Shown here: piece after piece, positions 2,827 to 58,545 of the stretch | Layout of the letters: each line of letters opens with the position of its first letter | How positions within the stretch are numbered: position 1 is the stretch's first letter | Assembly (NCBI GenBank): GCA_963809325.1 | Contig: CAWEIZ010000002.1 | Span: forward strand, 807,130 to 871,129 | DNA from: an uncultured Actinomycetes bacterium | Lineage (GTDB): Bacteria; Actinomycetota; Thermoleophilia; Gaiellales; JAICJC01 | Direction of reading: 5' to 3' | DNA: 64,000 bases | Translations under genes and position numbers: made by a program | Notes under the pieces: generated by a model | Seen by the model: the letters and a program-made list of their open reading frames with translations, nothing else | Database searches by the model: none | What the model was told of the DNA's origin: nothing

Positions 2827-3031
2827 TAGATGAACGATTCCACGCCGCCGCGCGCCTGGACATCCGGACTGTTATCGGTACGCGGCAGTGGCGGGGCTGC
2901 GGCTGCGAACCGTCGCATCGCTGCGTCCTCGGGAGCGTCGATATTTCAACCAATATCGACGCTCCCTGCGTCCTTGCGCTACTCGGTTCTCGCCGCCCAG
3001 GACATCACGGCGGCGTAGAACCGATCATCTA
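2827..3031 (+). mobile_element. TIR-bounded structured repeat, copy A (minimal form, about 205 bp; MITE-like)
   Basis: TA-GATGAACGATTCCACGCCGCC ... GGCGGCGTAGAACCGATCATC-TA; perfect 15-bp central hairpin at 2931-2966; shares blocks GCGCGCCTGGAC, GGGGCTGCGGCTGCGAACCGTCGCATC, TGCGTCCTTGCGCTACTCGGTTCTCGCC and GGACATCACG with four other loci. Confidence 0.75.
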
Positions 3032-3697
3032 TCGACGCGACTGCATGAACAGGAGCGCGAGCTGCCAGATCGCGACCAGGGCACCGACCACGTAGGTGAG
3101 GGCGGCGGCGGTCAGGACCTTGCGGGCGACCGGGACCTGCGACTGGCTGATGACGCCCTGCGTGCTCAGCATCGCCATCGCCTTCTTGCTGGCACCGAAC
3201 TCGACCGGCAGCGTCACGAGCTGGAACAGCACGATCGCCGAGAAGAGCGCGACGCCGACCAGCGCGAGGCCCGACGCCTGCGTGATGATCCCGAACAGGA
3301 AGATCGGGAACCAGGCCTGCGAGGCGAACCCGGCCGCGGGGACGAGCGAGCCGCGCAGCTTGAAGCCGGCCTCGCCGCGCGCGTGCTGGAACGCGTGCCC
3401 TGTCTCGTGGGCGGCCACGGCCACAGCCGCGACCGAGTTGGAGTTGCCGACCGGGGCCGACAGCCGCATCGTGTTCGAGCGGGGGTCGTAGTGGTCGGAG
3501 AGCTGGCCGGCGATCCCCTCGACCGTGACGTTCTGGAGGCCGCCGGAGTCGAGCATCTGGCGGCTCACCTGCGCGCCTGTGAGGCCCGATGCAGCCTGGA
3601 CCTTCGAGCCGTCGGCGAACGCGCGCTTCACCCACGCCTGGGCTGCCAGACCGAGGATCAGCGGCGGAACTGCGAACAGGATGTACCAGTAGTACAT
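3029..3697 (-). CDS. Membrane zinc metallopeptidase (YugP / Zn_peptidase_2 family)
   Basis: Start MYYWYILF after a GGAGGGG RBS; LSDHYDPR, VAAHETGHAFQ (HExxH), TLPVEFGAS, AAALTYV. Confidence 0.9.
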   Translation of the reverse strand: MYYWYILFAVPPLILGLAAQAWVKRAFADGSKVQAASGLTGAQVSRQMLDSGGLQNVTVEGIAGQLSDHYDPRSNTMRLSAPVGNSNSVAAVAVAAHETGHAFQHARGEAGFKLRGSLVPAAGFASQAWFPIFLFGIITQASGLALVGVALFSAIVLFQLVTLPVEFGASKKAMAMLSTQGVISQSQVPVARKVLTAAALTYVVGALVAIWQLALLFMQSRR

Positions 3698-3794
3698 GGG
3701 TGCCCCTCCTTCGGGGCTGGATTGGGTCTCATGAAGACTACGTGAACGTGTGGGCACCGGTTGGCCCGCGCACACGCGGCGCTAATCTTTGAGC

Positions 3795-11067: not shown

Positions 11068-11100
11068 CTGCAAGACCGGGGTCAGACCCCAATTTTGCAG
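11068..11100. repeat. 33-bp REP-like palindrome (core GGGGTCAGACCCC)
   Basis: CTGCAAGACC-GGGGTCAGACCCC-AATTTTGCAG immediately after the hyuB stop. Confidence 0.75.
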
Positions 11101-15393: not shown

Positions 15394-15713
15394 TAGATGA
15401 GTGATTCCACGTCCCCGCGCGCCTGGACGCACGTCGGTGGTTAGTAGCCGCGTTCTGGCGGGGCTGCGGCTGCGAACCGTCGCATCGCGGCGTCCTCGGT
15501 CGCGCCGATATTTCAACCAATATCGCCCGGCGGCGCCTGCGTAATCGCAGGCGCCTTCCGAACCCTGTCAAGCCGTTCCGGCTTGACAGATCCTGCGTCC
15601 TTGCGCTACTCGGTTCTCGCCCGTTCGCGACCTGCTGGTAGCAGATCGCTCACGACCGCCGCAAGCCAAGGCTTGCGGCTAGGACATCACGGCGACGTGG
15701 AATCACTCATCTA
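15394..15713 (+). mobile_element. TIR-bounded structured repeat, copy B (320 bp; MITE-like)
   Basis: Perfect 20-bp inverted repeat TAGATGAGTGATTCCACGTC / GACGTGGAATCACTCATCTA; internal hairpin cassettes Y (15532-15589) and X (15622-15679). Confidence 0.82.
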
Positions 15714-17300
15714 CGCCTCGCGGGGCACGCGCGGCTTCGCCGCGTACATCGCGCGGTCTGCGGTGCGGAAGAGCGGGCGCGGATCGTCGCCGTCGCGCGG
15801 GCAGACCGCGACCCCGAAGCCGGCCGCGAGCGCCTCGTCCCGCGCGGCGAACGCCGCGGTCATCGCCTCGCCGACGCGGTCGACCGCCGCCCTCGCCTCG
15901 TCATCGCCGGTTTCCGGCAGGATGAGGGCGAACTCGTCGCCGCCGATGCGAAACGCGGCGTCGGCGGTGCGGAGCGCGCTCGTGAGCACCGCGCCCACGA
16001 CCTCGAGCGCCTCGTCGCCGGCCGCATGGCCGTTCCTGTCGTTCAGGGCCTTGAACCCGTTCAGATCGCAGAGCACGAGGGCCATGGGGTGGCCGTAGCG
16101 CATCGACCGCGACACCTCCTGCTCGAGCCGCTCGTTGAAGGCGCGCCTGTTGAGCAGGCGGGTCAGCGGATCGTGCTCGGCGAGAAACTGCATCTCCTCG
16201 TACTGCGCGGCGGTGTCCAGCGCGGTCGTTGCCTGGTTGGCGAAGACGCGCAACGCCTGGAGCTTGCGCTCGGACGGGACGAGGCGGTCGGTCGGGTCGT
16301 CGGCCCAGATCGTGCCCATGACCTCTCCGGCGCGGCTCCAGAGCGGGACGACGAGCCAGTGGTTTCGCCACGCGAGCGGCCCGCGCCCGCTTCGCGCCGA
16401 CTCGTAGGTGTGGTGCTCGGGAGCGACCCGCTCGAGACCCTGCTGGTGGTCGAGCAGGTAGCAGCCCTCCACCTCGAACTGCGGGTCGAGGAGGCGCTCG
16501 ATCTGGGCGAACGGCATACCCGTGTTCACGGCCGGATCGTCCAGGTCCCACCCGTGAGTGGCGCGCGTCCGGAAGGCGCCCGTCTCGGGGTCCGGCAGGT
16601 CGATGCAGACGTTCTCGAAGCCGAGCGCCGTGTGGATGCCGTCGCACACCGACCGGAGGATCTCGTCGATCGCGAAGGTCTCCGTGAGGCGCGAGGACAC
16701 CTGAAGCAGCTGCTCGAGCGCGGCTCGGTGACGGGCGGCCTGCTCCGCCTCCTGGGTGCTCTGGACGGCGATTCCGGCGTGGTCGGCCATCGCGACGAGC
16801 ACGTCGAGCTCCTCGTCGGTCGGGATGCGGCCGCTGGAGGGCTCGTCGACGGACAGGATGCCGATGAGATGCCCGTCCGGGTGTCGCAGCGGGACGAACA
16901 GGGCGTCGAGCGGATGCCAGCCGTCCGGTCCGGGCCGGGCCGCGACGGGAGGGACGTACGAGCCCGGCGCGTGGGTCTCCCAGTCGAACTCGCCGTGCGG
17001 CACGTGGTAGGCGCCGCGGCGTGAGAAGCGCGAGTCGAGCAGCGGCTCCCACACCTCGCGTCCGCGCGCGTCGCCCAGGAGCCGCTCGGCGTCCGGGCTC
17101 CCGTGCACGGTGGTCACCTCGAAGTCGTCCCACGCCGGGCGGTGCAGGTGCACGGTCACGGTGGCGAAGCCGAGCGACTCGGAGATCGACTTCGCGATCG
17201 ACGCGAGGAGGCCGCCGAGCTCCTCCTCAGACCGCACGACGCGGGTGACCTCGAGGAATCCGCGGAGCCGCGAGAGCGCTTCAGGATCGTGAGGGGTCAC
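15711..17300 (-). CDS. Diguanylate cyclase, GAF-GAF-GGDEF (paralog 1)
   Basis: HDPLTRLLNRR, DLNGFKALND, RTAD I-site and GGDEF; two GAF-like domains; GTG start at 17300. Confidence 0.9.
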   Translation of the reverse strand: MTPHDPEALSRLRGFLEVTRVVRSEEELGGLLASIAKSISESLGFATVTVHLHRPAWDDFEVTTVHGSPDAERLLGDARGREVWEPLLDSRFSRRGAYHVPHGEFDWETHAPGSYVPPVAARPGPDGWHPLDALFVPLRHPDGHLIGILSVDEPSSGRIPTDEELDVLVAMADHAGIAVQSTQEAEQAARHRAALEQLLQVSSRLTETFAIDEILRSVCDGIHTALGFENVCIDLPDPETGAFRTRATHGWDLDDPAVNTGMPFAQIERLLDPQFEVEGCYLLDHQQGLERVAPEHHTYESARSGRGPLAWRNHWLVVPLWSRAGEVMGTIWADDPTDRLVPSERKLQALRVFANQATTALDTAAQYEEMQFLAEHDPLTRLLNRRAFNERLEQEVSRSMRYGHPMALVLCDLNGFKALNDRNGHAAGDEALEVVGAVLTSALRTADAAFRIGGDEFALILPETGDDEARAAVDRVGEAMTAAFAARDEALAAGFGVAVCPRDGDDPRPLFRTADRAMYAAKPRVPREA

Positions 17301-17316
17301 TGCCGTCGTCCTCGGA

Positions 17317-18915
17317 TCATGCGACGAAATGGATGTGGGCGCCGGTGCGCTTGGCCTCGTACATGGCGGCGTCCGCATCCCGCAGGAGCCGCTCGGCGTC
17401 GGTCAGGCCGCCCTCGCCGACGATCACGCCGAAGCTCGCCCGAAGCGGCGTTCCGGCCCGCTCGCCGGCTCCCTCGAGGTTCTCGGCGATGCGCTCGATC
17501 ACGGCTCGCGCCTCGGGGGCGGAGGTCTCGGGGAGGAGCAGCGCGAACTCGTCGCCGCCGATCCGGTACGCGGTGTCGGCGGCGCGCAGCCCGGCGCGCA
17601 GGATGAGCCCGAGCTGCTCGAGGGCGGCGTCGCCCGCCAGGTGCCCGTGGCGGTCGTTCACCGACTTGAACCCGTCGACGTCGAGCACGACCAGCGTGAA
17701 CGGGCGCCCGTAGCGGGTCGACCGCGTCATCTCGGCCTCCAGCCTGACCGCGAACGCGTGGCGGTTCAGGAGGCGGGTGAGCGGGTCGTGCTCGGCGAGG
17801 AACCGGACCTCCTCGAGGCGCCCCGCCGAGTCGAGCGCCGCGGTGGCCTGGTTCGCGAAGACCCGCAGCGCCTGCATGAGCTGCCGCGACGGGACGAGCC
17901 GGTCCTCGGGATCGTCGGCCCAGATGACGGCGATCACCTTGCCCTCGCGGTCGAGGAGCGGGACGACGAGCCAGTGCCTGTCCCAGGCCCAGGGGCCACG
18001 GCCGTTCATCACCGACCGGTACATGCGGTGGCCGGCCGGGAGCCGCAACATCGCCTGCTCGTGCGTGAGCAGGTAGCAGCCCTCGACCTCGAACGGCGGG
18101 TCGAGAAGGGGCGCGAGCTCCCACATCGAGAGCGGAGCGTTCTGGGCCAGCTCGTCGAGCGTCCAGCCGGCCGTCGCACGCGTGATGAACACCCCCGTCC
18201 CGGCGTCGGGGAGCTGAATCGAGACCTTCCGGAACCCCAGCGAGTGCCCGATCCCCTCGCAGGTCGCCTGGAGGATCGCCTCGACCGACGGCGTCTCGGC
18301 GAGCCGCGACGACACCTGCAGGAGCTCGCGAAGCGCGAGCCGGTGATGGGCGGCCGCGGCCTTCTCCTGGAAGCTCTGGAGGGCGAGGGCGACGTGGTCG
18401 GCGACCGCCACGAGCACCTCCAGCTCCTCGTCCGACGGGCGCGTGCCCGTGTAGGGCTCACCGACCGACAGGATCCCCAGCATGTGCCCGTCGGAGTGGA
18501 GCATCGGCACGAACAGCTCGTCGTCGGGGTGCCACGCGTCGGGGTCGGCGCTCGGCTCCCAGGCGGGGACGTACCGCTTGCCGACGTCGCCCTCCCAGTC
18601 GAACGTCCCGTGCGGGATCAGATAGGTGCCGCGGCGCTCGAACCGCTCGTCGAGGAGCGGAGCCCACGCGGCCCAGTCGAGGGTGTCGCCGAGGAGCGCC
18701 CGGCGTGCGTCGTCGGAGCCGTGCACCGTCGTCACCTCGAAGTCGTTCCACGCGGGACGGTAGAGGTTGATGACGACGGTGTGGAACCCGAGCGAGGTCG
18801 CGATCGAATCCGCGATGGCCTCGAGCAGGGCCGATTGCTCGGTCCCTTCCCGGACGAGCCGGGTGACCTCCAGGAGGCCGCGAAGGCGGTCGATGGTCGA
18901 CGGGTTCTCGGGCAT
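17317..18915 (-). CDS. Diguanylate cyclase, GAF-GAF-GGDEF (paralog 2)
   Basis: HDPLTRLLNRH, DVDGFKSVND, RAAD I-site and GGDEF; collinear with paralog 1; ATG at 18915. Confidence 0.9.
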   Translation of the reverse strand: MPENPSTIDRLRGLLEVTRLVREGTEQSALLEAIADSIATSLGFHTVVINLYRPAWNDFEVTTVHGSDDARRALLGDTLDWAAWAPLLDERFERRGTYLIPHGTFDWEGDVGKRYVPAWEPSADPDAWHPDDELFVPMLHSDGHMLGILSVGEPYTGTRPSDEELEVLVAVADHVALALQSFQEKAAAAHHRLALRELLQVSSRLAETPSVEAILQATCEGIGHSLGFRKVSIQLPDAGTGVFITRATAGWTLDELAQNAPLSMWELAPLLDPPFEVEGCYLLTHEQAMLRLPAGHRMYRSVMNGRGPWAWDRHWLVVPLLDREGKVIAVIWADDPEDRLVPSRQLMQALRVFANQATAALDSAGRLEEVRFLAEHDPLTRLLNRHAFAVRLEAEMTRSTRYGRPFTLVVLDVDGFKSVNDRHGHLAGDAALEQLGLILRAGLRAADTAYRIGGDEFALLLPETSAPEARAVIERIAENLEGAGERAGTPLRASFGVIVGEGGLTDAERLLRDADAAMYEAKRTGAHIHFVA

Positions 18916-23921: not shown

Positions 23922-24445
23922 CCGCCGACCCGTGGCACTGCGAGGCGTGCGGCGCCGCCTACGACATGGCCTCCCGCACGCTCGAGGTCGGCCTCGTCCG
24001 GCTGGCGCTCCATGGGACGGACGGGTTCAAGCTGGGGAGCGAGGGCATCGAGGCCGACGTCGCGGAGCTGCTCGAGCCGTGCAGCTGCGGCGGGCGGATT
24101 GCGCCGGGCGGCGAGGCTGCGGTACTGGGGTCTGACCCCGTCTTTGCAGCCGAGGCGGTGCGGCCGCCGGCGAGCAGGGGGTGGGAGGTGCTCGAGGGCG
24201 CCGACGATCCGGGCCTTCGCCGGCTGCGCGAGGTCTGGCGGCCGCGGGCGCTTCGGCTGCTCGGCCGGGAGGCGGAGCTCACCCCCGAGGATGTCCTCGG
24301 GCTGCGCCTCGAGCAGCGGCTGGCCGGCCTCCAGGCCGAGATCGATCGGGCCCGGGCGGCCGGTGACGACGACGCCGCGCAGATGGCGCACGCACGCTAC
24401 ATCGAGCTCGGGACGAGCTATGCCCGGCGGTTCGCTGCTCGTTGA
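23918..24445 (+). CDS. Hypothetical protein with Zn-ribbon-like Cys pairs and a C-terminal coiled coil
   Basis: GTGA overlap with the hydrolase; WHCEACG and PCSCGG; contains an in-frame REP palindrome. Confidence 0.65.
   Translation: MTADPWHCEACGAAYDMASRTLEVGLVRLALHGTDGFKLGSEGIEADVAELLEPCSCGGRIAPGGEAAVLGSDPVFAAEAVRPPASRGWEVLEGADDPGLRRLREVWRPRALRLLGREAELTPEDVLGLRLEQRLAGLQAEIDRARAAGDDDAAQMAHARYIELGTSYARRFAAR
24117..24149. repeat. 33-bp REP-like palindrome inside a CDS
   Basis: CTGCGGTACT-GGGGTCTGACCCC-GTCTTTGCAG; the unit and one flanking base on each side read AAVLGSDPVFAA. Confidence 0.7.
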
Positions 24446-28098: not shown

Positions 28099-28242
28099 CG
28101 GGGTCAGACCCCGCATCGGTCGCCGTCGCAGATTCGTGACGCCGGTGGCGCATACCGCGGCCGATAGCGGGCCGAAGCGCCGTCGACCTGTGCCGCCGCC
28201 GTCGCGAAAGCGCAAACCGCCGCGATGCGGGGTCTGACCCCG
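28099..28242. repeat. Inverted REP doublet (REPIN-like)
   Basis: CGGGGTCAGACCCCGCATCG (28099-28118) and its exact reverse complement CGATGCGGGGTCTGACCCCG (28223-28242), 104 bp apart, downstream of ftsH. Confidence 0.8.
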
Positions 28243-33877: not shown

Positions 33878-35029
33878 TCAGCCGCCGCCGGCGGCCGTTG
33901 CGAGCCGTCCGGACGCGATCGCGATGAGGCCGACGAGGCAGACCGGAATCACGAGCGCGGCGCGCAGGCCGATCTGACCCGCGGTGAACCCGATCGTCGC
34001 GGGGCCGATGATCTCGCCCACGTAGCCGACCGCGAAGACCCGGGAGACGACGGCTTCCGGGGTCCCGAGCCGCGCCCCGCCGGCGGCGCTGATGACCGTC
34101 GGCACGATCGGTGCGATCCCCGCCCCGAGGAGCGCGAAGCCGACCAGGCCCGCGGCGGAGGTCGGGATGAGGAGGGCGAGAGCGAGGCCGAGCCCCGCCG
34201 TGACGCTTGCCACACGGGTGAGCCTGACCGGGCCGAACCTGGCCGCCAGCCGATCGCCCGCGAGCCGCGAGGCGGCCATCGCCAGCGAGAAGCTCGCGAA
34301 CGCCGCCGCGGCGATCGCAGCGCCCGCGTCCGCCCGATCGCGCAGATAGACGGCGCTCCAGTCGGCTGCCGCCCCCTCGGCGAAGAACGAGCAGAAGGCG
34401 ATGAGGCCGAGCACGACCAGCTTCGCCGACCATCCGCCCGCGGCCTCGGCCGGACGGATCGGAATCGAGCGGTGCGGGAGCCGGGCAAGGAACGGCGCCG
34501 ATCCGGCGGCGACGATGGCTCCGGCCAGCGCGAAGTGCACGACCGGGCGGAGGTCGAGCGCCGCCGCTCCGATCCCTCCCACCGCTCCCACCATGAGCCC
34601 CACGCTCCAGAACCCATGGAACCCGGACATGAGGGGCCGGCCTCGTGCTCGCTCCACGACGACAGCCTCGGCGTTCATCGCGACGTCCACGACGGCCGCC
34701 GTGATGCCCAGGGCAACGAGCGCGGCGGTGAGCGTCGCCAGATCGCCGGCTGCGGCGGCGACGACCAGCGCCACAGCGAGCACCGGCAAGCCCGTCTGCA
34801 CGACGCGCCAGGCGCCCAGGCGCGACGCGAGCGCACCGCCCAGCCGGCTCCCGATGAGCGTCCCGGCCGCCATCCCGAAGAAGGCCAGTCCCAGCTGTGC
34901 GTCGCTCAGCCCGAGCGCATGCTTGACGGCCGGAACGCGTGACGCCCAGGTTCCGAAGACGACGGCATGCCCGAAAAACGCCACGGCCACGCCGACACGC
35001 CCACGATCACCCGAGAGACCCGCCGCCAT
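33878..35029 (-). CDS. MFS transporter
   Basis: About 12 TM segments; GTWASRVPAVK, DVAMNAEA, MSGFHGFWSVG, EGAAADWS, GDRLAARFG. Confidence 0.9.
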   Translation of the reverse strand: MAAGLSGDRGRVGVAVAFFGHAVVFGTWASRVPAVKHALGLSDAQLGLAFFGMAAGTLIGSRLGGALASRLGAWRVVQTGLPVLAVALVVAAAAGDLATLTAALVALGITAAVVDVAMNAEAVVVERARGRPLMSGFHGFWSVGLMVGAVGGIGAAALDLRPVVHFALAGAIVAAGSAPFLARLPHRSIPIRPAEAAGGWSAKLVVLGLIAFCSFFAEGAAADWSAVYLRDRADAGAAIAAAAFASFSLAMAASRLAGDRLAARFGPVRLTRVASVTAGLGLALALLIPTSAAGLVGFALLGAGIAPIVPTVISAAGGARLGTPEAVVSRVFAVGYVGEIIGPATIGFTAGQIGLRAALVIPVCLVGLIAIASGRLATAAGGG

Positions 35030-35070
35030 CGGGCGAGGCTAGTGGATGCCCGCCGTGTACTCTCGCACCG

Positions 35071-35859
35071 ATGCCCGCGGATGTCTGGGACGATGCCGAG
35101 CGCCTCGAGCGCTACGTCGGCCGGTGGAGCCGGCTCGTGGCGCGCGAGTTCGTCGCCTGGCTCGACGTGCCGCCGGGCGGCCGCTGGCTCGACGTGGGCT
35201 GCGGGTCGGGCGCGCTGACCGAGACGGTGCTCGCGGTCGCCGAGCCTGCGTCGGTGGCGGGCGTCGACACGTCGGCCGCGTACGTCGCCTATGCCGGCTC
35301 CCGGGTGACCGACCCGCGCGCGACCTTCGCGGTCGGCGACGCCCAGGCCCTGGATCACCCGGACGCCGCGTTCGACGCCGTCGCGAGCAGCCTCGTCCTC
35401 AACTTCCTTCCCGATCCCGAGCGTGGCGTCGCCGAGATGGCGCGCGTGGTCCGGCCGGGCGGCGTCGTCGCCGGCTATGTGTGGGACTACGCCGGCGAGA
35501 TGCAGCTCATGCGCCGCTTCTGGGACGCGGCCGTCGAGCTCGACCCGGCTGCGGCCGACCTCGACGAGGGCCGGCGGATGGCCGGGTGCAACCCCCCGGC
35601 GCTCGAGGCGCTCTTCGCCGGAGCCGGCCTCACGGGCGTCGAGACCCGGGCCATCGACGTGCCCACCGTGTTCGCCGGGTTCGACGACTACTGGATGCCG
35701 TTCGAGGGCGGCCAGGGCCCCGCGCCCGGCTACTGCGTCTCGCTGCCGGCGGATCGGCGCGAGGCGCTGCGCGAGCGGCTCCGCGAGACGCTGCCGGCCG
35801 AGGCCGACGGGTCGATCCGGCTGATCGCGCGGGCCTGGGCCGTGCGCGGCACCATCTAG
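35071..35859 (+). CDS. Class I SAM-dependent methyltransferase
   Basis: ERYVGRWS, WLDVGCGSG, GDAQAL, EMARVVRPGG, VWDY. Confidence 0.9.
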   Translation: MPADVWDDAERLERYVGRWSRLVAREFVAWLDVPPGGRWLDVGCGSGALTETVLAVAEPASVAGVDTSAAYVAYAGSRVTDPRATFAVGDAQALDHPDAAFDAVASSLVLNFLPDPERGVAEMARVVRPGGVVAGYVWDYAGEMQLMRRFWDAAVELDPAAADLDEGRRMAGCNPPALEALFAGAGLTGVETRAIDVPTVFAGFDDYWMPFEGGQGPAPGYCVSLPADRREALRERLRETLPAEADGSIRLIARAWAVRGTI

Positions 35860-35868
35860 ACTGTCGCC

Positions 35869-45220: not shown

Positions 45221-45419
45221 GACGATTGATTCGATGCTGCCGTGATGTCCTGGGCGGCGAGAACCGAGTCCGCGAGGACGCAGGGAGCGTCGATATTGGT
45301 TGAAATATCGGCGCGACCGAGGACGCCGCGAGACGACGGTTCGCAACCGCAGCCCACCACAAACGCGCCACCGACCACCGTTGGACGTCCAGGCGCGCGG
45401 GGGCGTGGAATCACTCGAC
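45221..45419 (-). mobile_element. TIR-bounded structured repeat, copy C (about 199 bp, inverted, degenerate or mosaic)
   Basis: The minus strand has GAGTGATTCCACGCCCCCGCGCGCCTGGAC...GCGAACCGTCG...CGATATTTCAACCAATATCGACGCTCCCTGCGTCCT...CTCGGTTCTCGCCGCCCAGGACATCACGG; no TA flanks. Confidence 0.7.
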
Positions 45420-47133: not shown

Positions 47134-48558
47134 GTGAGCGGCGACGCCGAGGACCGGATCCGGGCCGACCGCATCGCCAAGGTGGACGCGATGCGGGCCG
47201 CCGGCGTCGATCCGTATCCCGCCCGGACGCCCGCCCGCGTGTCCGTTGCGGAGGTTCGGGAGCGGTTCGGCGACCTCGAGGCGGGCGCCGAGACGGACAC
47301 GCGGCTGGCCGTGGCCGGGCGGATCGCGGCCCGCCGGGGCCACGGCAAGGCCATGTTCCTCGACCTCGCCGACCGGACCGGGCGCCTCCAGCTCCACGCC
47401 ACGCTCGACGGGCTGGGCGAGGAGCCGTACGCCGCCCTCGCCGACGCCGATCTGGGCGACGTGATCGCGGCCGACGGCGCCGTCTTCGTGAGCCGCCGCG
47501 GGGAGCTGAGCCTGCGCGTGGGCGAGTGGCAGATGCTGGCGAAGTGCCTGCGGCCGCTCCCCGAGAAGTGGCACGGGCTGACCGACGTCGAGCTCCGCCA
47601 CCGGCGCAGGTACGTCGACCTGATCGTGAACGAGGACTCGCGCCTGCTCGCCATGGCCCGGTCGCGGATGGTGACCGCGATGCGGGCCGTGCTCGACGGC
47701 GACGGCTTCGTCGAGGTCGAGACCCCGATCCTGCAGCCGATCTACGGCGGCGCGTCCGCAGAGCCGTTCACGACGTACTACAACGAGTTCGAGCGCGACT
47801 TCTACCTGCGCATCGCCGACGAGCTCTACCTGAAGCGGCTGATCGTCGGCGGCCTCGAGCGGGTGTACGAGATCGCGAAGGACTTCCGGAACGAGGGCGT
47901 GTCGTTCAAGCACAACCCGGAGTTCACGATGCTCGAGTGGTACGAGGCCTACGGCGACTACGACGTCGGGATGAAGCGGGTCGAGCGCGTGATCGCCGCG
48001 GCAGGAGCGGCGGCCGGCAGCGAGATCGACCTCACGCCGCCGTGGCCGCGGGTTCCGCTCCGCGAGGCGATTCACGAGTACGCGGGCATCGATCCGATGG
48101 CGGACCGCGATCGCGACCGGCTCGTCGCCCACCTGCGGGCGGCCGACATCGACACGACGGCCGACGAGACCTGGGCCGATGCGGTCGACCATCTGCTGTC
48201 CCACTTCGTCGAGCCGGCGATCGAGCGCCCGACGTTCCTCGTCGACTACCCGGTCGAGCTCTCGCCGCTGGCCAAGCGCACACCCGGCGATCCGGGGCTC
48301 GTCGAGCGGTTCGAGGCGTTCTGCGTCGGCATGGAGCTCGGAAACGGCTACACGGAGCTGAACGATCCCGAGGACCAGCGGGCCCGGTTCGCGGCGCTCG
48401 GCCAGGCCGACGACGACTACGTGCTGGCGCTCGAGTACGGGATGCCGCCGACGGTCGGCGTCGGGATCGGCATCGACCGGCTGCTGATGGCGCTCAGGGG
48501 CGTGCGCTCGATCCGCGAGGTCATCCTGTTTCCAACGCTTCGGGACAGGGGCGAGTGA
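47134..48558 (+). CDS. lysS: Lysine--tRNA ligase (class II)
   Basis: RRGHGKAMF, RYVDL, LRIADELYLKRLIVGG, FRNEG, HNPEFTMLEWY, GIGIDRL. Confidence 0.96.
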   Translation: MSGDAEDRIRADRIAKVDAMRAAGVDPYPARTPARVSVAEVRERFGDLEAGAETDTRLAVAGRIAARRGHGKAMFLDLADRTGRLQLHATLDGLGEEPYAALADADLGDVIAADGAVFVSRRGELSLRVGEWQMLAKCLRPLPEKWHGLTDVELRHRRRYVDLIVNEDSRLLAMARSRMVTAMRAVLDGDGFVEVETPILQPIYGGASAEPFTTYYNEFERDFYLRIADELYLKRLIVGGLERVYEIAKDFRNEGVSFKHNPEFTMLEWYEAYGDYDVGMKRVERVIAAAGAAAGSEIDLTPPWPRVPLREAIHEYAGIDPMADRDRDRLVAHLRAADIDTTADETWADAVDHLLSHFVEPAIERPTFLVDYPVELSPLAKRTPGDPGLVERFEAFCVGMELGNGYTELNDPEDQRARFAALGQADDDYVLALEYGMPPTVGVGIGIDRLLMALRGVRSIREVILFPTLRDRGE

Positions 48559-48559
48559 C

Positions 48560-49138
48560 GTGGGCAAGGTCTTCGACGAGATCGACGACAGGCTGACCGG
48601 CTGGATCGCGGCCCAGCAGCTCTTCTTCGTCGCCACGGCGCCGTCGGGCGACGGCGGCCACGTGAACTGCTCGCCGAAGGGGCCGATCGAGAGCCTGCGG
48701 GTGCTCGGCCCACGCCGGGTCGCCTACCTCGACCTGGTCGGATCGGGCGCCGAGACGATCGCGCACCTGCGCCAGAACGGCCGGATCGTGATCATGCTGT
48801 GCGCCTTCGTCGGGCCTCCGCGCATCCTGCGGCTGTACGGCCGGGGGCGGATCGTGACGGCCGCCGATGCGGAGTTCGACGAGCTCGCCGGCTGGTTCCA
48901 GATCCGCGACGCCTATGCGACCGAGCCGGTGAAGCGCTCAGTCGTCGTCGTGGACGTCGATCGCGTCGCCGACTCGTGCGGCTACGGCGTGCCGCTCATG
49001 GAGCCCGTGGGCGACCGCCCGCAGCAGGCGCTCTGGGTCGAGCGCAAGCTCGCGCAGGGCGGTCCGGACGCGATCGCGGCCTACCGGGCCGAGCACAACG
49101 TCCGCTCGATCGACGGCCTGCCCGCGCTGGACGGCTAG
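48560..49138 (+). CDS. Pyridoxamine 5'-phosphate oxidase family protein
   Basis: FFVATAP, VNCSPKG, YLDLVGSGAETIAHL, MLCAF.GPPRILRLYG, SCGYGVP. Confidence 0.87.
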   Translation: MGKVFDEIDDRLTGWIAAQQLFFVATAPSGDGGHVNCSPKGPIESLRVLGPRRVAYLDLVGSGAETIAHLRQNGRIVIMLCAFVGPPRILRLYGRGRIVTAADAEFDELAGWFQIRDAYATEPVKRSVVVVDVDRVADSCGYGVPLMEPVGDRPQQALWVERKLAQGGPDAIAAYRAEHNVRSIDGLPALDG

Positions 49139-49513
49139 ATCGGTGATTCCCAATTCCCGCGCGCCTGGACGTACCGCTGCTCGTGCAGGCCCGTCGCGGT
49201 GGGGCTGCGGCTGCGAACCGTCGCATCCACGGGGGACCTGCTGGATAGCAGGTCTTCCCGTGACCGCTGCAAGGCGTTCGCCTTGCAGCTTGTCCTCGGT
49301 CGCGCCGATATTCACCAATGTCGGCCGGCGGCGCCTGCGTAATCGCAGGCGCCTTCCGAACCCTGTCAAGCCGTTCCGGCTTGACAGGTCCTGCGTCCTT
49401 GCGCTGCTTGGTTCGCAGCCCGCTCGCGACCTGCTGAGTAGCAGGTCGCTCACGACCGCCGCAAGCCCAGGGCTTGCGGCTGGGACATCACGGAATTGGG
49501 AATCAACGATCTA
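49136..49513 (+). mobile_element. TIR-bounded structured repeat, copy D (378 bp, longest; two X cassettes)
   Basis: CTAGATCGGTGATTCCCAATTCC / GGAATTGGGAATCAACGATCTAG (22/23 match); the left TA belongs to the upstream TAG stop and the right TA abuts the downstream GTG start. Confidence 0.82.
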
Positions 49514-50491
49514 GTGCCCGAGACGACGCTCTACGGGCCCGGGCAGTCGCGGTTCGCCCGCCTCCTCGAGCGGCGCGAGGAGCGGCGGCCGGACGAGACC
49601 TCACGGGCGCTCCGCGGCAAGCTCCTGACCGGGATCAGGGGGCGGGTGATCGAGATCGGCTGCGGAGGCGGCCCCGCCTTCGAGCACTACCCGCCGGAGG
49701 TGGAGCGAGTGCTCGCCGTGGAGCCCGACCCTGTCGCCCGCGCGGCGGCCGCAGAGAGCGCGGCCGCGGCGGCGGCTCCGATCGACGTGGTCGAGGGGTT
49801 CGCCGAGCGCCTGCCGGCGGGAGACGGCATGTTCGACGCCGTCGTCTGCATCTGGGTGCTGTGCAGCGTGCCCGACGTGGCGGCGGCGCTGCGCGAGTTC
49901 CGCCGGGTGCTCGTGCCGGGCGGCGAGCTGCGCGTATACGAGCACGTCCGCTCGCCCCACGCCCCGTTCCGCGCCGTCCAGCACGCGGTCGACTCGCTCT
50001 TCTGGACGCGGTCGCTCGGCGGCTGCGAGACGACGCGCGACACCGAGGCCGCGATCCGCGCCGCGGGCTTCGAGTTCGACCGGATCGAGCGCGGCTTCCA
50101 GTCCTCCTCGCTGCTCACGATCACCGCCGCGCCGTACATCCTCGGCACGGCGCGAAAATTGGGGTCTGACCCCGTTCCTGCATGCCCAAATGCGGTTGGT
50201 GCGGCGAACCACTGGGGCCAGGCCCCGGACGGGGTTTGGCCCCATGGGGTCTGCGGCCGGCACGGCTGCGCAACACCGGGGTCTGACCCCGATGTTGCGC
50301 CGGTTCGGGCGCCTGAGGCCCGGAGCCGAGCTCCGGGCCTCGCACAGACGATGGCGTGCACACGTGGGGGGCTCGTGGGGGGAGCCTGCTCCCCCCACGG
50401 ATCTATTCGTGGGCGGCGAGGAACTCGCGGAGCATCGGCATGTAGACCTCCGGATGCTCGGCGAAGCACAGGTGCGAGCCGTCAGGGATGA
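49514..50491 (+). CDS. Class I SAM-dependent methyltransferase; recognisable fold ends near 50150 and the ORF runs on through a repeat cluster
   Basis: VIEIGCGGG, VEPDP, LPAGDGMFDAVV, VLCSVPD, RRVLVPGGEL..YEHVR, PYILGTAR. Confidence 0.8.
   Translation: MPETTLYGPGQSRFARLLERREERRPDETSRALRGKLLTGIRGRVIEIGCGGGPAFEHYPPEVERVLAVEPDPVARAAAAESAAAAAAPIDVVEGFAERLPAGDGMFDAVVCIWVLCSVPDVAAALREFRRVLVPGGELRVYEHVRSPHAPFRAVQHAVDSLFWTRSLGGCETTRDTEAAIRAAGFEFDRIERGFQSSSLLTITAAPYILGTARKLGSDPVPACPNAVGAANHWGQAPDGVWPHGVCGRHGCATPGSDPDVAPVRAPEARSRAPGLAQTMACTRGGLVGGACSPHGSIRGRRGTRGASACRPPDARRSTGASRQG
50151..50399. repeat. Cluster of REP-like palindromes and hairpins
   Basis: GGGGTCTGACCCC at 50161 and 50278; variants GGGGCCAGGCCCC 50214 and GGGGTTTGGCCCC 50231; perfect 12-bp stems at 50315-50341 and 50374-50399. 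Confidence 0.75.
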
Positions 50492-56401: not shown

Positions 56402-56820
56402 CTGACGGTCAGCGTGCCCTTCATGCCGGCGGCCTCGTGCCCCGGCACCGAGCAGTAGAACGTGTACGTCCCGGCCTTGAGGTCGGCGATGTCGATCGTC
56501 GAGACGCCGCCGTCCTGGACGATGTCACCCTTCTCGTCGACGCCGTTCCCCTTGAGGGAGATGTCGTGGCCGGTCGACTGCGGGTTCATCGACTTGATCA
56601 CGACGTGGCCGGCCGTTGCCGTCGCTGTGGTCTCCGCGTAGGCGAAGCCGCTCGCGGCGACGTCGATCTCGACGACCTGGCCGCCGGAGGCCGAGCCGCC
56701 ACCGCCGCCCGAGGAGCCGCCGCCGCTCGAGCCGCCACCGCCGCAGGCACCGGCGAGGAGCGCGATGACCGCGGCCCCGGCGATCCAGCGGCCTCTGATG
56801 ATGCTGCTCTGATGGGTCAT
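56398..56820 (-). CDS. Cupredoxin (plastocyanin/azurin-like) lipoprotein
   Basis: LLAGAC lipobox, Gly/Ser linker, GHDI and YTFYCSVPGHEAAGM type-1 copper ligands. Confidence 0.88.
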   Translation of the reverse strand: MTHQSSIIRGRWIAGAAVIALLAGACGGGGSSGGGSSGGGGGSASGGQVVEIDVAASGFAYAETTATATAGHVVIKSMNPQSTGHDISLKGNGVDEKGDIVQDGGVSTIDIADLKAGTYTFYCSVPGHEAAGMKGTLTVS

Positions 56821-56854
56821 AAGGCTTTGGACGTTAGCAACGTGGGCGCCCTGA

Positions 56855-57172
56855 GATGGGTGATTCCCAATTCCCGCGCGCCTGGACGTCCGGATGTGGA
56901 CTGGGATTTGGCTCTGGTGGGGCTGCGGCTGCGAACCGTCGCATCGCTGCGTCCTCGGTCGGGCCGATATTTCAACCAATATCGCCCGGCGGCGCCTGCG
57001 TCATCGCAGGCGCCTTCCGAACCCTGTCAAGCCGTTCCGACTTGACAGGTCCTGCGTCCTTGCGCTGCTCGGTTCTCGCCCATGAGCGACCTGCTGGATA
57101 GCAGGTCGCTCATGACCGCGGCAAGCCGTCGGCTTGCCGCTGGAACATCACGCGAATTGGGAATCAACCATC
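56855..57172 (+). mobile_element. TIR-bounded structured repeat, copy E (318 bp)
   Basis: GATGGGTGATTCCCAATTC / GAATTGGGAATCAACCATC (18/19 match); cassettes Y and X present; no TA flanks. Confidence 0.8.
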
Positions 57173-57210
57173 GCGGCGCCATCCGCGGTCACTGCCAGAA
57201 TGGAACGTCC

Positions 57211-58545
57211 GTGACCCGGACCCTCGTCGCATACGTCTGCACCGCCTGCGGGCACCATGCCCCCAAGTGGCTCGGCCGCTGCCCCGGCTGCGGCGAGTGG
57301 AACACGCTCCAGGAGGGTGCCGCCCGGCCCGCAGCCCGAAACGGCCGTACGCGGCCGGCGGCCGTGGTGCGGCTCGCCGATGTCGACACCGCCGAGGGGC
57401 GGCGCATGCCGACGGGGATCGACGAGCTCGACCGCGTGCTCGGCGGGGGCCTCGTTCCCGGATCGCTCGTCCTGATCGGTGGCGAGCCGGGCGTCGGCAA
57501 GAGCTCGCTCCTGCTCCAGGCGCTCGCCGCGGCCTCCGCCCGCGGCCTGCGCACGCTGCTCGTCTCGGGCGAGGAGTCGCCCGCACAGGTGCGGATGCGT
57601 GCGGGGCGGCTGGGCGATGCCGACGGCGTCCGCATCCTCGCCGAGACCGACCTCGAGGTGGTCGTCGAGACGATCGCCGCGGAGCTCCCCGACGTCTGCG
57701 TGATCGACTCGGTGCAGACGCTCCACACGGCCGATGTCGGGTCGGGGGCGGGATCGGTCGCGCAGGTGCGCGAGGCCGCCGACCGGCTGCTTCGGCTCGC
57801 AAAGTCGCGCGGCGTCGCCATCGTCCTCGTCGGCCACGTCACCAAGGACGGCACCGTCGCCGGCCCGCGCGTGCTCGAGCACCTGGTCGACGCCGTGCTC
57901 CAGTTCGAGGGCGACCGCTACCGGCACCTGCGCGTGCTGCGGGCCGTGAAGAACCGCTTCGGCTCCACCGACGAGATCGGGATCTTCGAGATGACGGGGG
58001 CGGGCCTCGTCCCGGTCGTCGATCCGTCGTCGGCGCTGGCCGAGGACGGCGTTGCCGGGCCCGGTTCCGTGCTCCTGCCGGCGATCGAGGGCAGCCGGCC
58101 GATCCTGCTCGAGGTGCAGGCGCTCGTGGCCCCCTCCGACCTGGCGATGCCCCGCCGCCAGGCGACGGGGTTCGACCGCAACCGCCTCAGCATGATCGCC
58201 GCGGTGCTCGGGCGACACGCCGGCATCGCGCTCGGCTCGTCGGACGTGTTCGTGAACGTGGCCGGAGGCGTGCGCGTCGACGAGCCGGCTGCCGACCTCG
58301 CCGTCGCCCTGGCGATCGTCTCGTCGCACCGCGGCCGGCCAGCCGGCGAGCGACTGGCGTGCTTCGGCGAGATCGGGCTCACCGGCCGCCTGCGCCCCGT
58401 GGGCCACACCGCTCCGCGGCTCGCCGAGGCGGCCAAGCTGGGCGTCACCGAGGTCGTCGCACCCGCCGGCACCTCGGGCCCGGGTTCTCTCACGGTTCGC
58501 TGCGCTGATACCCTGGATGCGGCGATCGGGCTCGCACTGGCCTGA
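57211..58545 (+). CDS. radA: DNA repair protein RadA/Sms
   Basis: CTACG...WLGRCPGCGEW Zn finger, GGEPGVGKS, KNRFG, Lon-like C-terminus. Confidence 0.96.
   Translation: MTRTLVAYVCTACGHHAPKWLGRCPGCGEWNTLQEGAARPAARNGRTRPAAVVRLADVDTAEGRRMPTGIDELDRVLGGGLVPGSLVLIGGEPGVGKSSLLLQALAAASARGLRTLLVSGEESPAQVRMRAGRLGDADGVRILAETDLEVVVETIAAELPDVCVIDSVQTLHTADVGSGAGSVAQVREAADRLLRLAKSRGVAIVLVGHVTKDGTVAGPRVLEHLVDAVLQFEGDRYRHLRVLRAVKNRFGSTDEIGIFEMTGAGLVPVVDPSSALAEDGVAGPGSVLLPAIEGSRPILLEVQALVAPSDLAMPRRQATGFDRNRLSMIAAVLGRHAGIALGSSDVFVNVAGGVRVDEPAADLAVALAIVSSHRGRPAGERLACFGEIGLTGRLRPVGHTAPRLAEAAKLGVTEVVAPAGTSGPGSLTVRCADTLDAAIGLALA

Follow-up and report, generated by a model that had tools for sequence, protein, structure and literature searches.

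The window, i.e., the whole stretch of DNA that was analysed, comprises 64,000 nt from an uncultured Actinomycetes bacterium of the Gaiellales. Towards its end, a divergent cupredoxin-like open reading frame (ORF; minus strand, start at about 56820) and radA (GTG start at about 57211) are separated by a spacer that consists nearly entirely of one element, E, which on inspection of the sequence is 318 nt long, non-coding and dense in hairpins. E is bounded by inverted repeats (GATGGGTGATTCCCAATTC... on the left, ...GAATTGGGAATCAACCATC on the right) and is a copy of a family that is referred to here as the MITE. Its parts are as follows, H1 and H2 being the two hairpins of a repeated cassette:

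56855..57172, plus strand: MITE copy E, long form with two cassettes, 318 nt
56855..56876, plus strand: left terminal inverted repeat (TIR); positions 1-13 resemble those of IS982-type ends, positions 14-22 are variable and co-vary with the right arm
56888..56921, plus strand: G/T-rich variable region, present in the left arm only, without a right-arm partner
56925..56947, plus strand: 5' strands of the long-range helices III (GCGGCTGCGAACCG) and IV (GCATCGC), with covariation
56957..56990, plus strand: central stem M2 with an AT-rich apex (GATATTTCAACCAATATC), the 'central stem' of the original prediction
56991..57048, plus strand: cassette copy 1, with H1 GGCGCCTGCG-TCAT-CGCAGGCGCC and H2 CTGTCAAGCC..GACTTGACAG (covariance model R1, 58 bits)
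57062..57080, plus strand: 3' strands of helices IV (GCGCTGC) and III (CGGTTCTCGCC)
57081..57140, plus strand: cassette copy 2 (called 'cassette X' earlier), with H1 CATGAGCGACCTGCT-GGAT-AGCAGGTCGCTCATG and H2 GCGGCAAGCC-GTC-GGCTTGCCGC (R1, 81 bits)
57151..57172, plus strand: right TIR, of which 18 of 20 positions match those of the left arm; one of the mismatches is at position 6

E folds much more stably than shuffled sequence, with z-scores of -10.0 (plus strand) and -10.7 (minus strand). A search of Rfam 15 gave no family match on the element, all hits by E-value scoring 17 bits or less, and the sole Rfam hit in the window, a TPP riboswitch, lies elsewhere. No sigma-70-type promoters or intrinsic terminators were found in or around copies D and E.

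The 20-base exact pattern GATTCC-N6-CCGCGCGCCTGGAC that was used to search for copies has five matches in the window, compared with 0.04 expected. In addition to E, these are:

2829..3029, plus strand: copy A, 201 nt, cassette-free basic form; the TAG stop of the minus-strand ORF 3029-3781 adjoins its right end
15396..15711, plus strand: copy B, 316 nt, with cassettes at 15532-15589 and 15622-15679; its right end adjoins the TAG stop of the minus-strand ORF 15711-17402
45221..45419, minus strand: copy C, 199 nt, basic form with degenerate ends
49138..49511, plus strand: copy D, 374 nt, with cassettes at 49228-49289, 49330-49387 and 49421-49480; the TAG stop of ORF 48488-49138 takes its G from the left end of this copy

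The five copies fall into only two subfamilies (D and E; A, B and C) and therefore cannot prove significance by themselves. The same pattern occurs at no fewer than 108 loci of a species-representative genome collection, a sample in which exact-pattern ascertainment inflates conservation at the pattern columns and may miss divergent subfamilies. One locus (L002, Proluteimonas) was rejected as a chance match, as its right arm is absent. The matches listed come nearly all from Gaiellales, Thermoleophilia or 'uncultured Actinomycetes' soil MAGs; of these, MFD05442.bin.1.39 is nearest to the window, with which it shares a syntenic stretch at 82-85% nucleotide identity. Elements with both arms could be delimited 99 times among these matches. 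Copies are 197-374 nt long: most have about 200 nt (the basic form, as A and C), others about 255-262, 298-320 or 374 nt. The family is abundant, with five copies in the 64-kb window and dozens in single MAGs. It has no coding capacity; stops in all three frames lie within the first 11 nt of each end (TAGATGATTGA) and only spurious ORFs overlap the element. A literature search found no paper on Gaiellales repeats.

It had been claimed that the TIR differs between copies yet stays self-complementary within each, and the sequences quoted for this are all present in their places: GATGAGTGATTCCACGTC in B, GATCGGTGATTCCCAATTCC in D, GATGGGTGATTCCCAATTC in E and GATGAACGATTCCACGCCGCC in A. Over 20 nt, the two arms are complementary at 17 positions in A, 19 in B, 14 in C, 19 in D and 18 in E. 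A mismatch at TIR position 6 does recur in A, C, D and E and is absent from B; in the wider set it is found in 12 of 64 copies, and it is present also in copies of the autonomous IS described below. The inner part of the arm occurs as a graded series of variants (ACGCCCC, ACACCCC, ACATTCC, ATATTCC, CAATTCC and CAATTGC), each mirrored on the opposite arm, and subfamilies have been named by the ends CAATT and ATATT. The outer TIR likewise has subfamily end types, GATCGTTGATTCCCAATT and GATGGTTGATTCCATATT.

A metagenome scan for the TIR followed by sequence unlike that of the MITE revealed the partner of the family. There are at least 34 IS elements of roughly 990 bp (982-1003 bp) that have the same 16-nt ends, GATGATTGATTCCACG, and cTA...TAg flanks. 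They encode a protein of 289 amino acids, which matches NCBIfam NF033520 (IS982-family transposase) with 165.2 bits (cutoff 130) and Pfam DDE_Tnp_1 with 72.6 bits (5e-20). The transposases are mostly 60-90% identical to one another, the 16-nt ends are essentially invariant, and nothing beyond the ends is shared between the internal sequence of the IS and the core of the MITE. No IS982-type transposase was found in the window or in genome loci L001-L108; two TIR-core spacings of about 1.1 kb in the 108 loci were considered as partner IS and contain unrelated genes. An affiliation with IS630/Tc1-mariner, suggested by the TA duplication in CTAG, was discarded, as the ISs with these ends belong to the IS982 family. 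At least five unrelated MITE families carry the same TIR, and all of them are near-perfect fold-back rods. Judged from these sequences, E is very probably a non-autonomous DNA transposon (MITE) that is mobilised in trans by an IS982-family DDE transposase. For an IS982-related MITE there is one published precedent, in Cardinium (PMC9769881).

Comparison of the arms of MITE and IS separates two kinds of constraint. The expectation that transposase-binding TIRs should be conserved in sequence holds for the autonomous IS, in which positions 1-16 are at least 94% invariant (34 copies); complementarity between the IS arms is 91-100% at positions 1-16 and 9-50% at positions 17-22. In the MITE (98 copies), the arms are complementary over 16-22 nt, and complementarity of 67-93% continues to position 22, whereas sequence conservation at positions 14-19 is only 59-76%.

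The target duplication is TA, within CTAG. Of the 99 copies delimited among the matches listed, 56 have TA/TA as flanks and 39 have CTA..TAG. The window also contains an unoccupied counterpart:

35856..35859, plus strand: empty target site CTAG, the TAG of which is the stop of ORF 34939-35859

Its context reads atCTAGact (35854-35862). At the orthologous site in MFD05442.bin.1.39 (L101) there is a 199-nt copy with TA on both sides, and the filled site reads aacTA[ GATGAGTG...CAACCATC ]TAGact. Among other orthologous loci, L011 and L017 have the same site occupied in opposite orientation, and different subfamilies fill the same site in L003 and L009, and again in L033 and L083. The genomes have about 70% G+C, and CTAG is scarce in them and concentrated at TAG stop codons: outside the elements there are 216 sites in 905 kb, 84 of which coincide with TAG stops called by a crude GC3-based gene caller. 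Since the first base of the element is G and the last is C, CTAG, and hence the stop codon, is rebuilt on both sides. There are 42 flanking ORFs that terminate in a TAG made at an element boundary, including those at A, B and D in the window.

By the same crude GC3 gene calls, the copies are enriched between convergent genes (41/93, compared with 118/460 in the background) and depleted between divergent genes (9/93, compared with 97/460). E is one of the few promoter-side copies. Orientation has no bias with respect to the flanking genes in tandem contexts (19 vs 27) or to local GC skew (49 vs 43).

Folding of single sequences yields local hairpins; in contrast, RNAalifold applied to 64 distinct copies of about 200 nt (alignments were made by MAFFT or were model-fitted) gives a rod, which was completed to 62 pairs and comprises six helices:

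Helix I: the TIR, 22 bp
Helix II: CCTGG / CCAGG
Helix III: GCGGCTGCGAACC / GGTTCGCAGCCGC
Helix IV: GCATCGC/GCGCTGC, with the variants GCCTCGC/GCGAGGC, GCGGGGC/GCCCCGC and GCCTGGC/GCCAGGC
Helix V: weak
Helix VI: the apical stem M2, AT-rich

The G/T-rich region of the left arm (50% G, 26% T, 17% C and 7% A in the 64 copies) has a low column identity of 0.66. In E, a fold with helices III and IV enforced is about 10 kcal/mol worse than the minimum free energy fold, and helix III is weaker in the subfamily to which E belongs. Because E pays this price, the rod is to be seen as a feature of the family, of unequal strength among copies.

In the 62-pair fold-back of the 64 copies, 91.2% of cells are paired, 27 of the 62 pairs have double changes, and there are 206 double-change cells; shuffles, which ignore phylogeny, give 85.2±0.2%, 15.9±1.7 and 53±5.5, respectively, and none of 500 reached any observed value. 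Two controls keep the relatedness of the copies. When the partner is slid by 1-3 columns, pairing falls to 33-41% and double-change cells to 15-40; and when all of about 210 columns are ranked, the predicted partner comes first for 38 of 59 variable paired columns, which argues against shared ancestry alone as the cause. Thus, the paired changes proposed in the original prediction are real and specific for their partners. The local M1 hairpins TGCGA/TCGCA and TGCGGC/GTCGCA, preferred by single-sequence folding, were rejected, as compensated changes number 0 in one and 1 in the other; variation in column 96 is instead balanced by column 162, which belongs to the long-range helix IV. TIR pairs 17/201, 18/200 and 19/199 co-vary, as do 6 of the 10 pairs of M2, which have double changes in the 64-copy core alignment and for which the forms earlier described in A and E are as reported. 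The orthologous copies L068 and L093 differ as CATAG/CTATG and CATAC/GTATG. Complementarity is kept over sequence in the inner TIR (positions 14-22), the central stem, the long-range helices and the cassettes, as had been proposed: it is the base pairing of a rod-like fold-back, not the sequence, that the family conserves.

Wobble pairs are scarce on the plus strand, the stems being almost purely Watson-Crick. Of the double-change types, around half exchange C-G for G-C, a transversion swap that cannot pass through a wobble intermediate. Mismatch types present in at least two copies are more often A.C than G.T (19 vs 5), singletons are balanced (13 vs 12), and among private changes G.T exceeds A.C (11 vs 6); the cassettes have no clear wobble bias. 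In a young subfamily of nine copies, private substitutions are 2.4-fold rarer at paired sites (24 in 194) than at unpaired sites (18 in 61). This depletion could reflect selection or hairpin-templated repair.

The cassette is a module of about 60 nt that consists of H1, a GACCGC linker and H2. H1 has a stem of 10-15 bp around CTGCG-TGAT-CGCAG or CTGCT-GGRT-AGCAG, and H2 has the form NNN-CAAGSS-loop-SSCTTG-NNN. E and B have two cassettes each and D has three, and A and C are of the basic form. The variants noted earlier for the last hairpin are all present, i.e., GCCGCAAGCC/GGCTTGCGGC in B and D, GCGGCAAGCC/GGCTTGCCGC in E, and GCTGCAAGGC/GCCTTGCAGC in the extra cassette of D. A covariance model found 43 instances in the first 100 sources, and the following 100 (L100-L199) gave 7. 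In the 43 instances, 83% of cells are paired compared with 66% in shuffled ones, with 174 compared with 73 double-change cells, and at least eight distinct stem sequences for H2 and at least seven for H1 occur, all paired. Every instance in the roughly 1.4 Mb searched lies inside a copy or truncated copy of the MITE, and 26 of 26 instances of the regular-expression set have the orientation of their host element; on both counts, the cassette was rejected as an independent mobile hairpin element. There are four cassette positions: in the 5' strand of helix III, after the 5' strand of helix IV, after M2, and before the right arm. The first three are junctions or loops of the rod, and the fourth overlaps the 3' strand of helix II. 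Two orthologous pairs (L095/L102 and L061/L108) show clean presence and absence of a cassette; therefore, cassettes are acquired or shed in situ, for which conversion between copies is the simplest route.

The explanation that best accounts for the observed anatomy, mobility, partner IS, target site and covariation is that of a MITE mobilised by an IS982-type element, with a fold-back under selection and with the transcript as the best guess for the place where pairing matters; taken as a whole, its prospects are evenly balanced. The 16-nt inverted repeat of the IS forms the outer ends of the MITE, on which the transposase would act in trans. The core is a rod-like fold-back, in which the TIR helix is extended to 22 bp and followed by two long-range helices and an AT-rich apical stem, with one to three two-hairpin cassettes added as side branches. 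The lineages that produce copies would be those that keep a self-contained fold-back, and because of this a change in one strand of a helix would persist in a subfamily only together with its complement. That the selection acts on the fold-back in the transcript is plausible, though somewhat short of probable; the level at which pairing is selected is an inference, and transcription itself is suggested by the position of the copies. Most copies lie directly behind stop codons or between cistrons, in either orientation, so RNA of both polarities would have to fold; therefore, changes would be almost all from Watson-Crick to Watson-Crick, with wobble forbidden. That the unrelated MITE families sharing this TIR fold back almost perfectly as well argues against an RNA role specific to this family and for a link to the origin or movement of the elements.

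Pairing could instead be needed in the DNA, where single-stranded DNA or a cruciform would join the two ends of a very short transposon; this is a somewhat doubtful alternative to a role in the transcript. The high share of transversion swaps and the rod shape of the unrelated families with this TIR both speak for a cause at the level of the DNA.

According to another explanation, which was also raised in the original prediction and is unlikely, the arms are homogenised: in a quasi-palindrome, one arm serves as template for the other, through template switching during replication or through repair on a hairpin, and a mutation is thereby erased or mirrored, which mimics compensatory evolution without structural selection. 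The mechanism is documented and has been proposed to make or keep perfect stems with multi-base compensatory changes (PMC8794818). It fits the transversion swaps at least as well as stepwise selection does, and it is in line with the almost purely Watson-Crick stems; the short loops of the cassette hairpins suit template switching, and the depletion of private substitutions in stems may reflect repair too. However, several mismatches persist, i.e., T.C at columns 97/161 (46 copies), C.T (29 copies), C.C at TIR position 19 (15 copies) and two C.A pairs in M2 (41-44 copies), and because these have been inherited across many diversified copies, fast homogenisation of the arms is disfavoured. Furthermore, compensation also occurs across strands that are 80-200 nt apart (the TIR and helices III and IV), and no loop inversions, the typical footprint of template switching, were seen on inspection of the alignment. 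Conserved asymmetry, including the left-only G/T-rich region of 40 nt, has not been erased, and on the persistence of such asymmetric parts re-palindromisation of the whole element was rejected as the source of the covariation.

In a rather improbable reading, complementarity itself is required in cis if an IS982-type DDE transposase is to move very short elements. The cruciform or single-stranded fold-back would rebuild the TIR duplex from one strand and would place both cleavage sites at the junction.

It is very unlikely that the TIR covariation reflects co-evolution with a subfamily-specific IS982-type transposase without base pairing, the internal stems then being a separate matter. This explanation needs one protein to bind both ends, as is the case for DDE transposons; the subfamilies differ at positions 4-6 and 14-16, which are within the 16-nt IS repeat, and the IS copies are polymorphic at positions 5 and 6, L189 having G6 on both arms. 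Some of the variation in the outer TIR (positions 4-6 and 14-16) may trace tolerant positions or different transposase lineages. Yet pairing in the MITE reaches positions 17-22, where the IS arms are mutually unrelated, positions 17-19 co-vary, and the internal helices and cassettes are left unexplained. No IS end of the GATCGTTGATTCCCAATT type occurs among the 34 IS, although the search pattern is blind to such ends. Tracking of the transposase by the outer-TIR positions, together with other causes, makes up the small remainder of the probability.

HUH-type hairpin recognition, another suggestion of the original prediction, fared poorly. The hairpins would be recognition sites for an HUH/Y1 single-strand transposase, as in IS200/IS605 or REP/RAYT, and their number, conserved shape and variable sequence would suit this; the TIRs of 16-22 bp, the TA duplication, ends that match a DDE transposon of the IS982 family, the lack of an orientation bias with respect to local GC skew, and the confinement of the cassettes to the MITE in the roughly 1.4 Mb covered, always in its orientation, make it extremely improbable. 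That the covariation is an artefact of a few related subfamilies and of alignment choices is scarcely credible: shuffling takes no account of relatedness, many copies arose by recent duplication and the structure was derived partly from the same sequences, but the slid-partner controls, the top ranking of the predicted partners and the number of distinct, fully paired H1 and H2 stem sequences stand against it.

Several known repeats resemble the family in part. The closest in phenomenon is bcr1, which belongs to group A of the bcr repeats in the Bacillus cereus group. This MITE-like element has about 155 bp and is flanked by short direct repeats; it has been reported as transcribed and as retaining a cruciform-like structure through compensatory base-pair changes (PMC3184786). 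It differs in having no sequence relation, in its host phylum and in a duplication of 5 bp rather than TA, and no modular cassettes or link to IS982 have been reported for it. The Cardinium MITE, whose parent is ISCca4, is also non-autonomous, has IS982-family inverted repeats and is thought to be moved by intact parents (PMC9769881); however, it is described as derived from the parent IS, whereas here only the 16-nt ends are common and the core is unrelated, and the paper does not deal with structure or covariation (PMC9769881). RUP of Streptococcus pneumoniae is a short MITE with a TA target, TIRs that match an IS, and stops in all frames (PMC2229807); its partner is an IS630 element (IS630-Spn1), and it is a simple element of 107 bp with no cassettes and no reported compensatory evolution.

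The Correia/NEMIS elements of Neisseria are fold-back MITEs that are co-transcribed and form long RNA hairpins with proposed RNase III cleavage (PMC2229807); they are unrelated in sequence and, unlike the present family, carry an IHF site and promoter elements. They were the functional model behind the original prediction. Together with ERIC, they are functional analogues in which RNase III or RNase E affects co-transcripts (PMC2229807). The pneumococcal BOX element is modular, with boxA, a variable number of boxB and boxC, and has a stable predicted secondary structure (PMC3049150); it supplies the stop codon of the upstream gene in 36 of the 58 coding sequences that overlap a BOX (PMC3049150). 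The modules of BOX are in tandem, whereas here one two-hairpin cassette is found at four places inside an element bounded by TIRs. REP/BIME/REPIN sequences, mobilised by RAYT, are likewise abundant extragenic palindromes at the 3' ends of genes; REPs are without TIRs or target duplications and depend on a Y1 transposase, whereas the MITE family has both TIRs and a TA duplication. The family is undescribed and is abundant in uncultured soil Gaiellales, and compensatory change in MITE-like repeats is already known.

The family is a natural data set for the question why bacterial MITEs fold back, as the constraints on sequence and on pairing can be separated by means of the IS, the arms of which stop at position 16. 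It also provides an example of insertion at TAG stop codons that rebuilds the stop, and of gain or loss of a two-hairpin module among orthologous copies. In the annotation of these MAGs the family should be masked, as it gives rise to spurious ORFs and can lengthen or shorten gene calls. If complementarity were indeed a cis requirement for movement, this would be a transposon selected for its shape, in which cassettes are tolerated only as side branches, and it would explain why every unrelated MITE family with the same TIR is a near-perfect rod.

The IS982-type ends, i.e., the 16-nt TIR common to the MITE and the ~990-bp autonomous IS, are borne by at least five further MITE families, 60-252 nt in size and unrelated in their cores, among the loci found by scanning metagenomes for TIR ends (L109-L228). 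These families likewise have the flanks cTA..TAg, and every one of them is predicted to fold as a near-perfect rod.

Examples of other MITE families with IS982-type ends (locus and coordinates):
L140, 752-811
L153, 389-500
L184, 502-666
L188, 1391-1589
L146, 8807-9010
L151, 198-449

A pair of TIR-like cores, 1079 bp apart, is also present in L059 (4429-5507), one of the genome loci matching the MITE pattern. The fragment between them resembles the C-terminal end of a tyrosine recombinase (…HPHDLRHRYAS…LGHARSSITLDTYSHVL), and no transposase was found between these cores.

In the window, the ~1.2-kb segment at 33878-35029 codes for a 383-amino acid membrane protein on the minus strand, transporter-like in appearance. 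This segment is missing from L101 (the locus of the closest relative, MAG MFD05442.bin.1.39), which is elsewhere syntenic with the window; thus, the two related genomes differ here by an indel, and the segment is not an IS. Beside MITE copy B, two adjacent segments of ~1.4 kb (15867-17270 and 17482-18888; 72-76% identity, spacing 1615-1618 bp) appear to be paralogous genes arranged in tandem.

A second small repeat, the 13-nt palindrome GGGGTC(A/T)GACCCC, has seven sites in the window, giving 13 strand-matches compared with 0.16 expected.

Sites of the palindrome in the window:
1857
11078-11090
24127-24139
28100-28112
28229-28241
50161-50173
50278-50290

An intergenic paired arrangement, with sites ~120-130 nt apart, is seen twice in the window. 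The palindrome is also present in 12 of the fetched loci, in some of which (L047, L055, L072) it directly adjoins a MITE copy. It looks like a REP-like small repeat, unrelated to the MITE. A separate feature of the window bears no relation to the MITE finding:
TPP riboswitch on the minus strand at 1727-1832, scoring 61 bits (gathering score 54.3)

The sole large unpaired stretch of the MITE lies in the left arm, at 56888-56921 in copy E and at the equivalent position in all copies (columns 34-70 of alignment A3, of the ~200-nt copies), where the right arm provides no partner strand. Its sequence varies and its composition is constant (50% G, 26% T, 7% A), so the opposite strand is C-rich and G-poor, which in composition would resemble a Rho-utilisation site.

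The start codons of the divergent cupredoxin-like ORF and radA are ~390 nt apart (window 56820-57211), a spacer in which no sigma-70-type consensus was found. Copy E fills 318 of these nucleotides, i.e., most of the spacer; the promoters of both genes must lie within the MITE or read through it.
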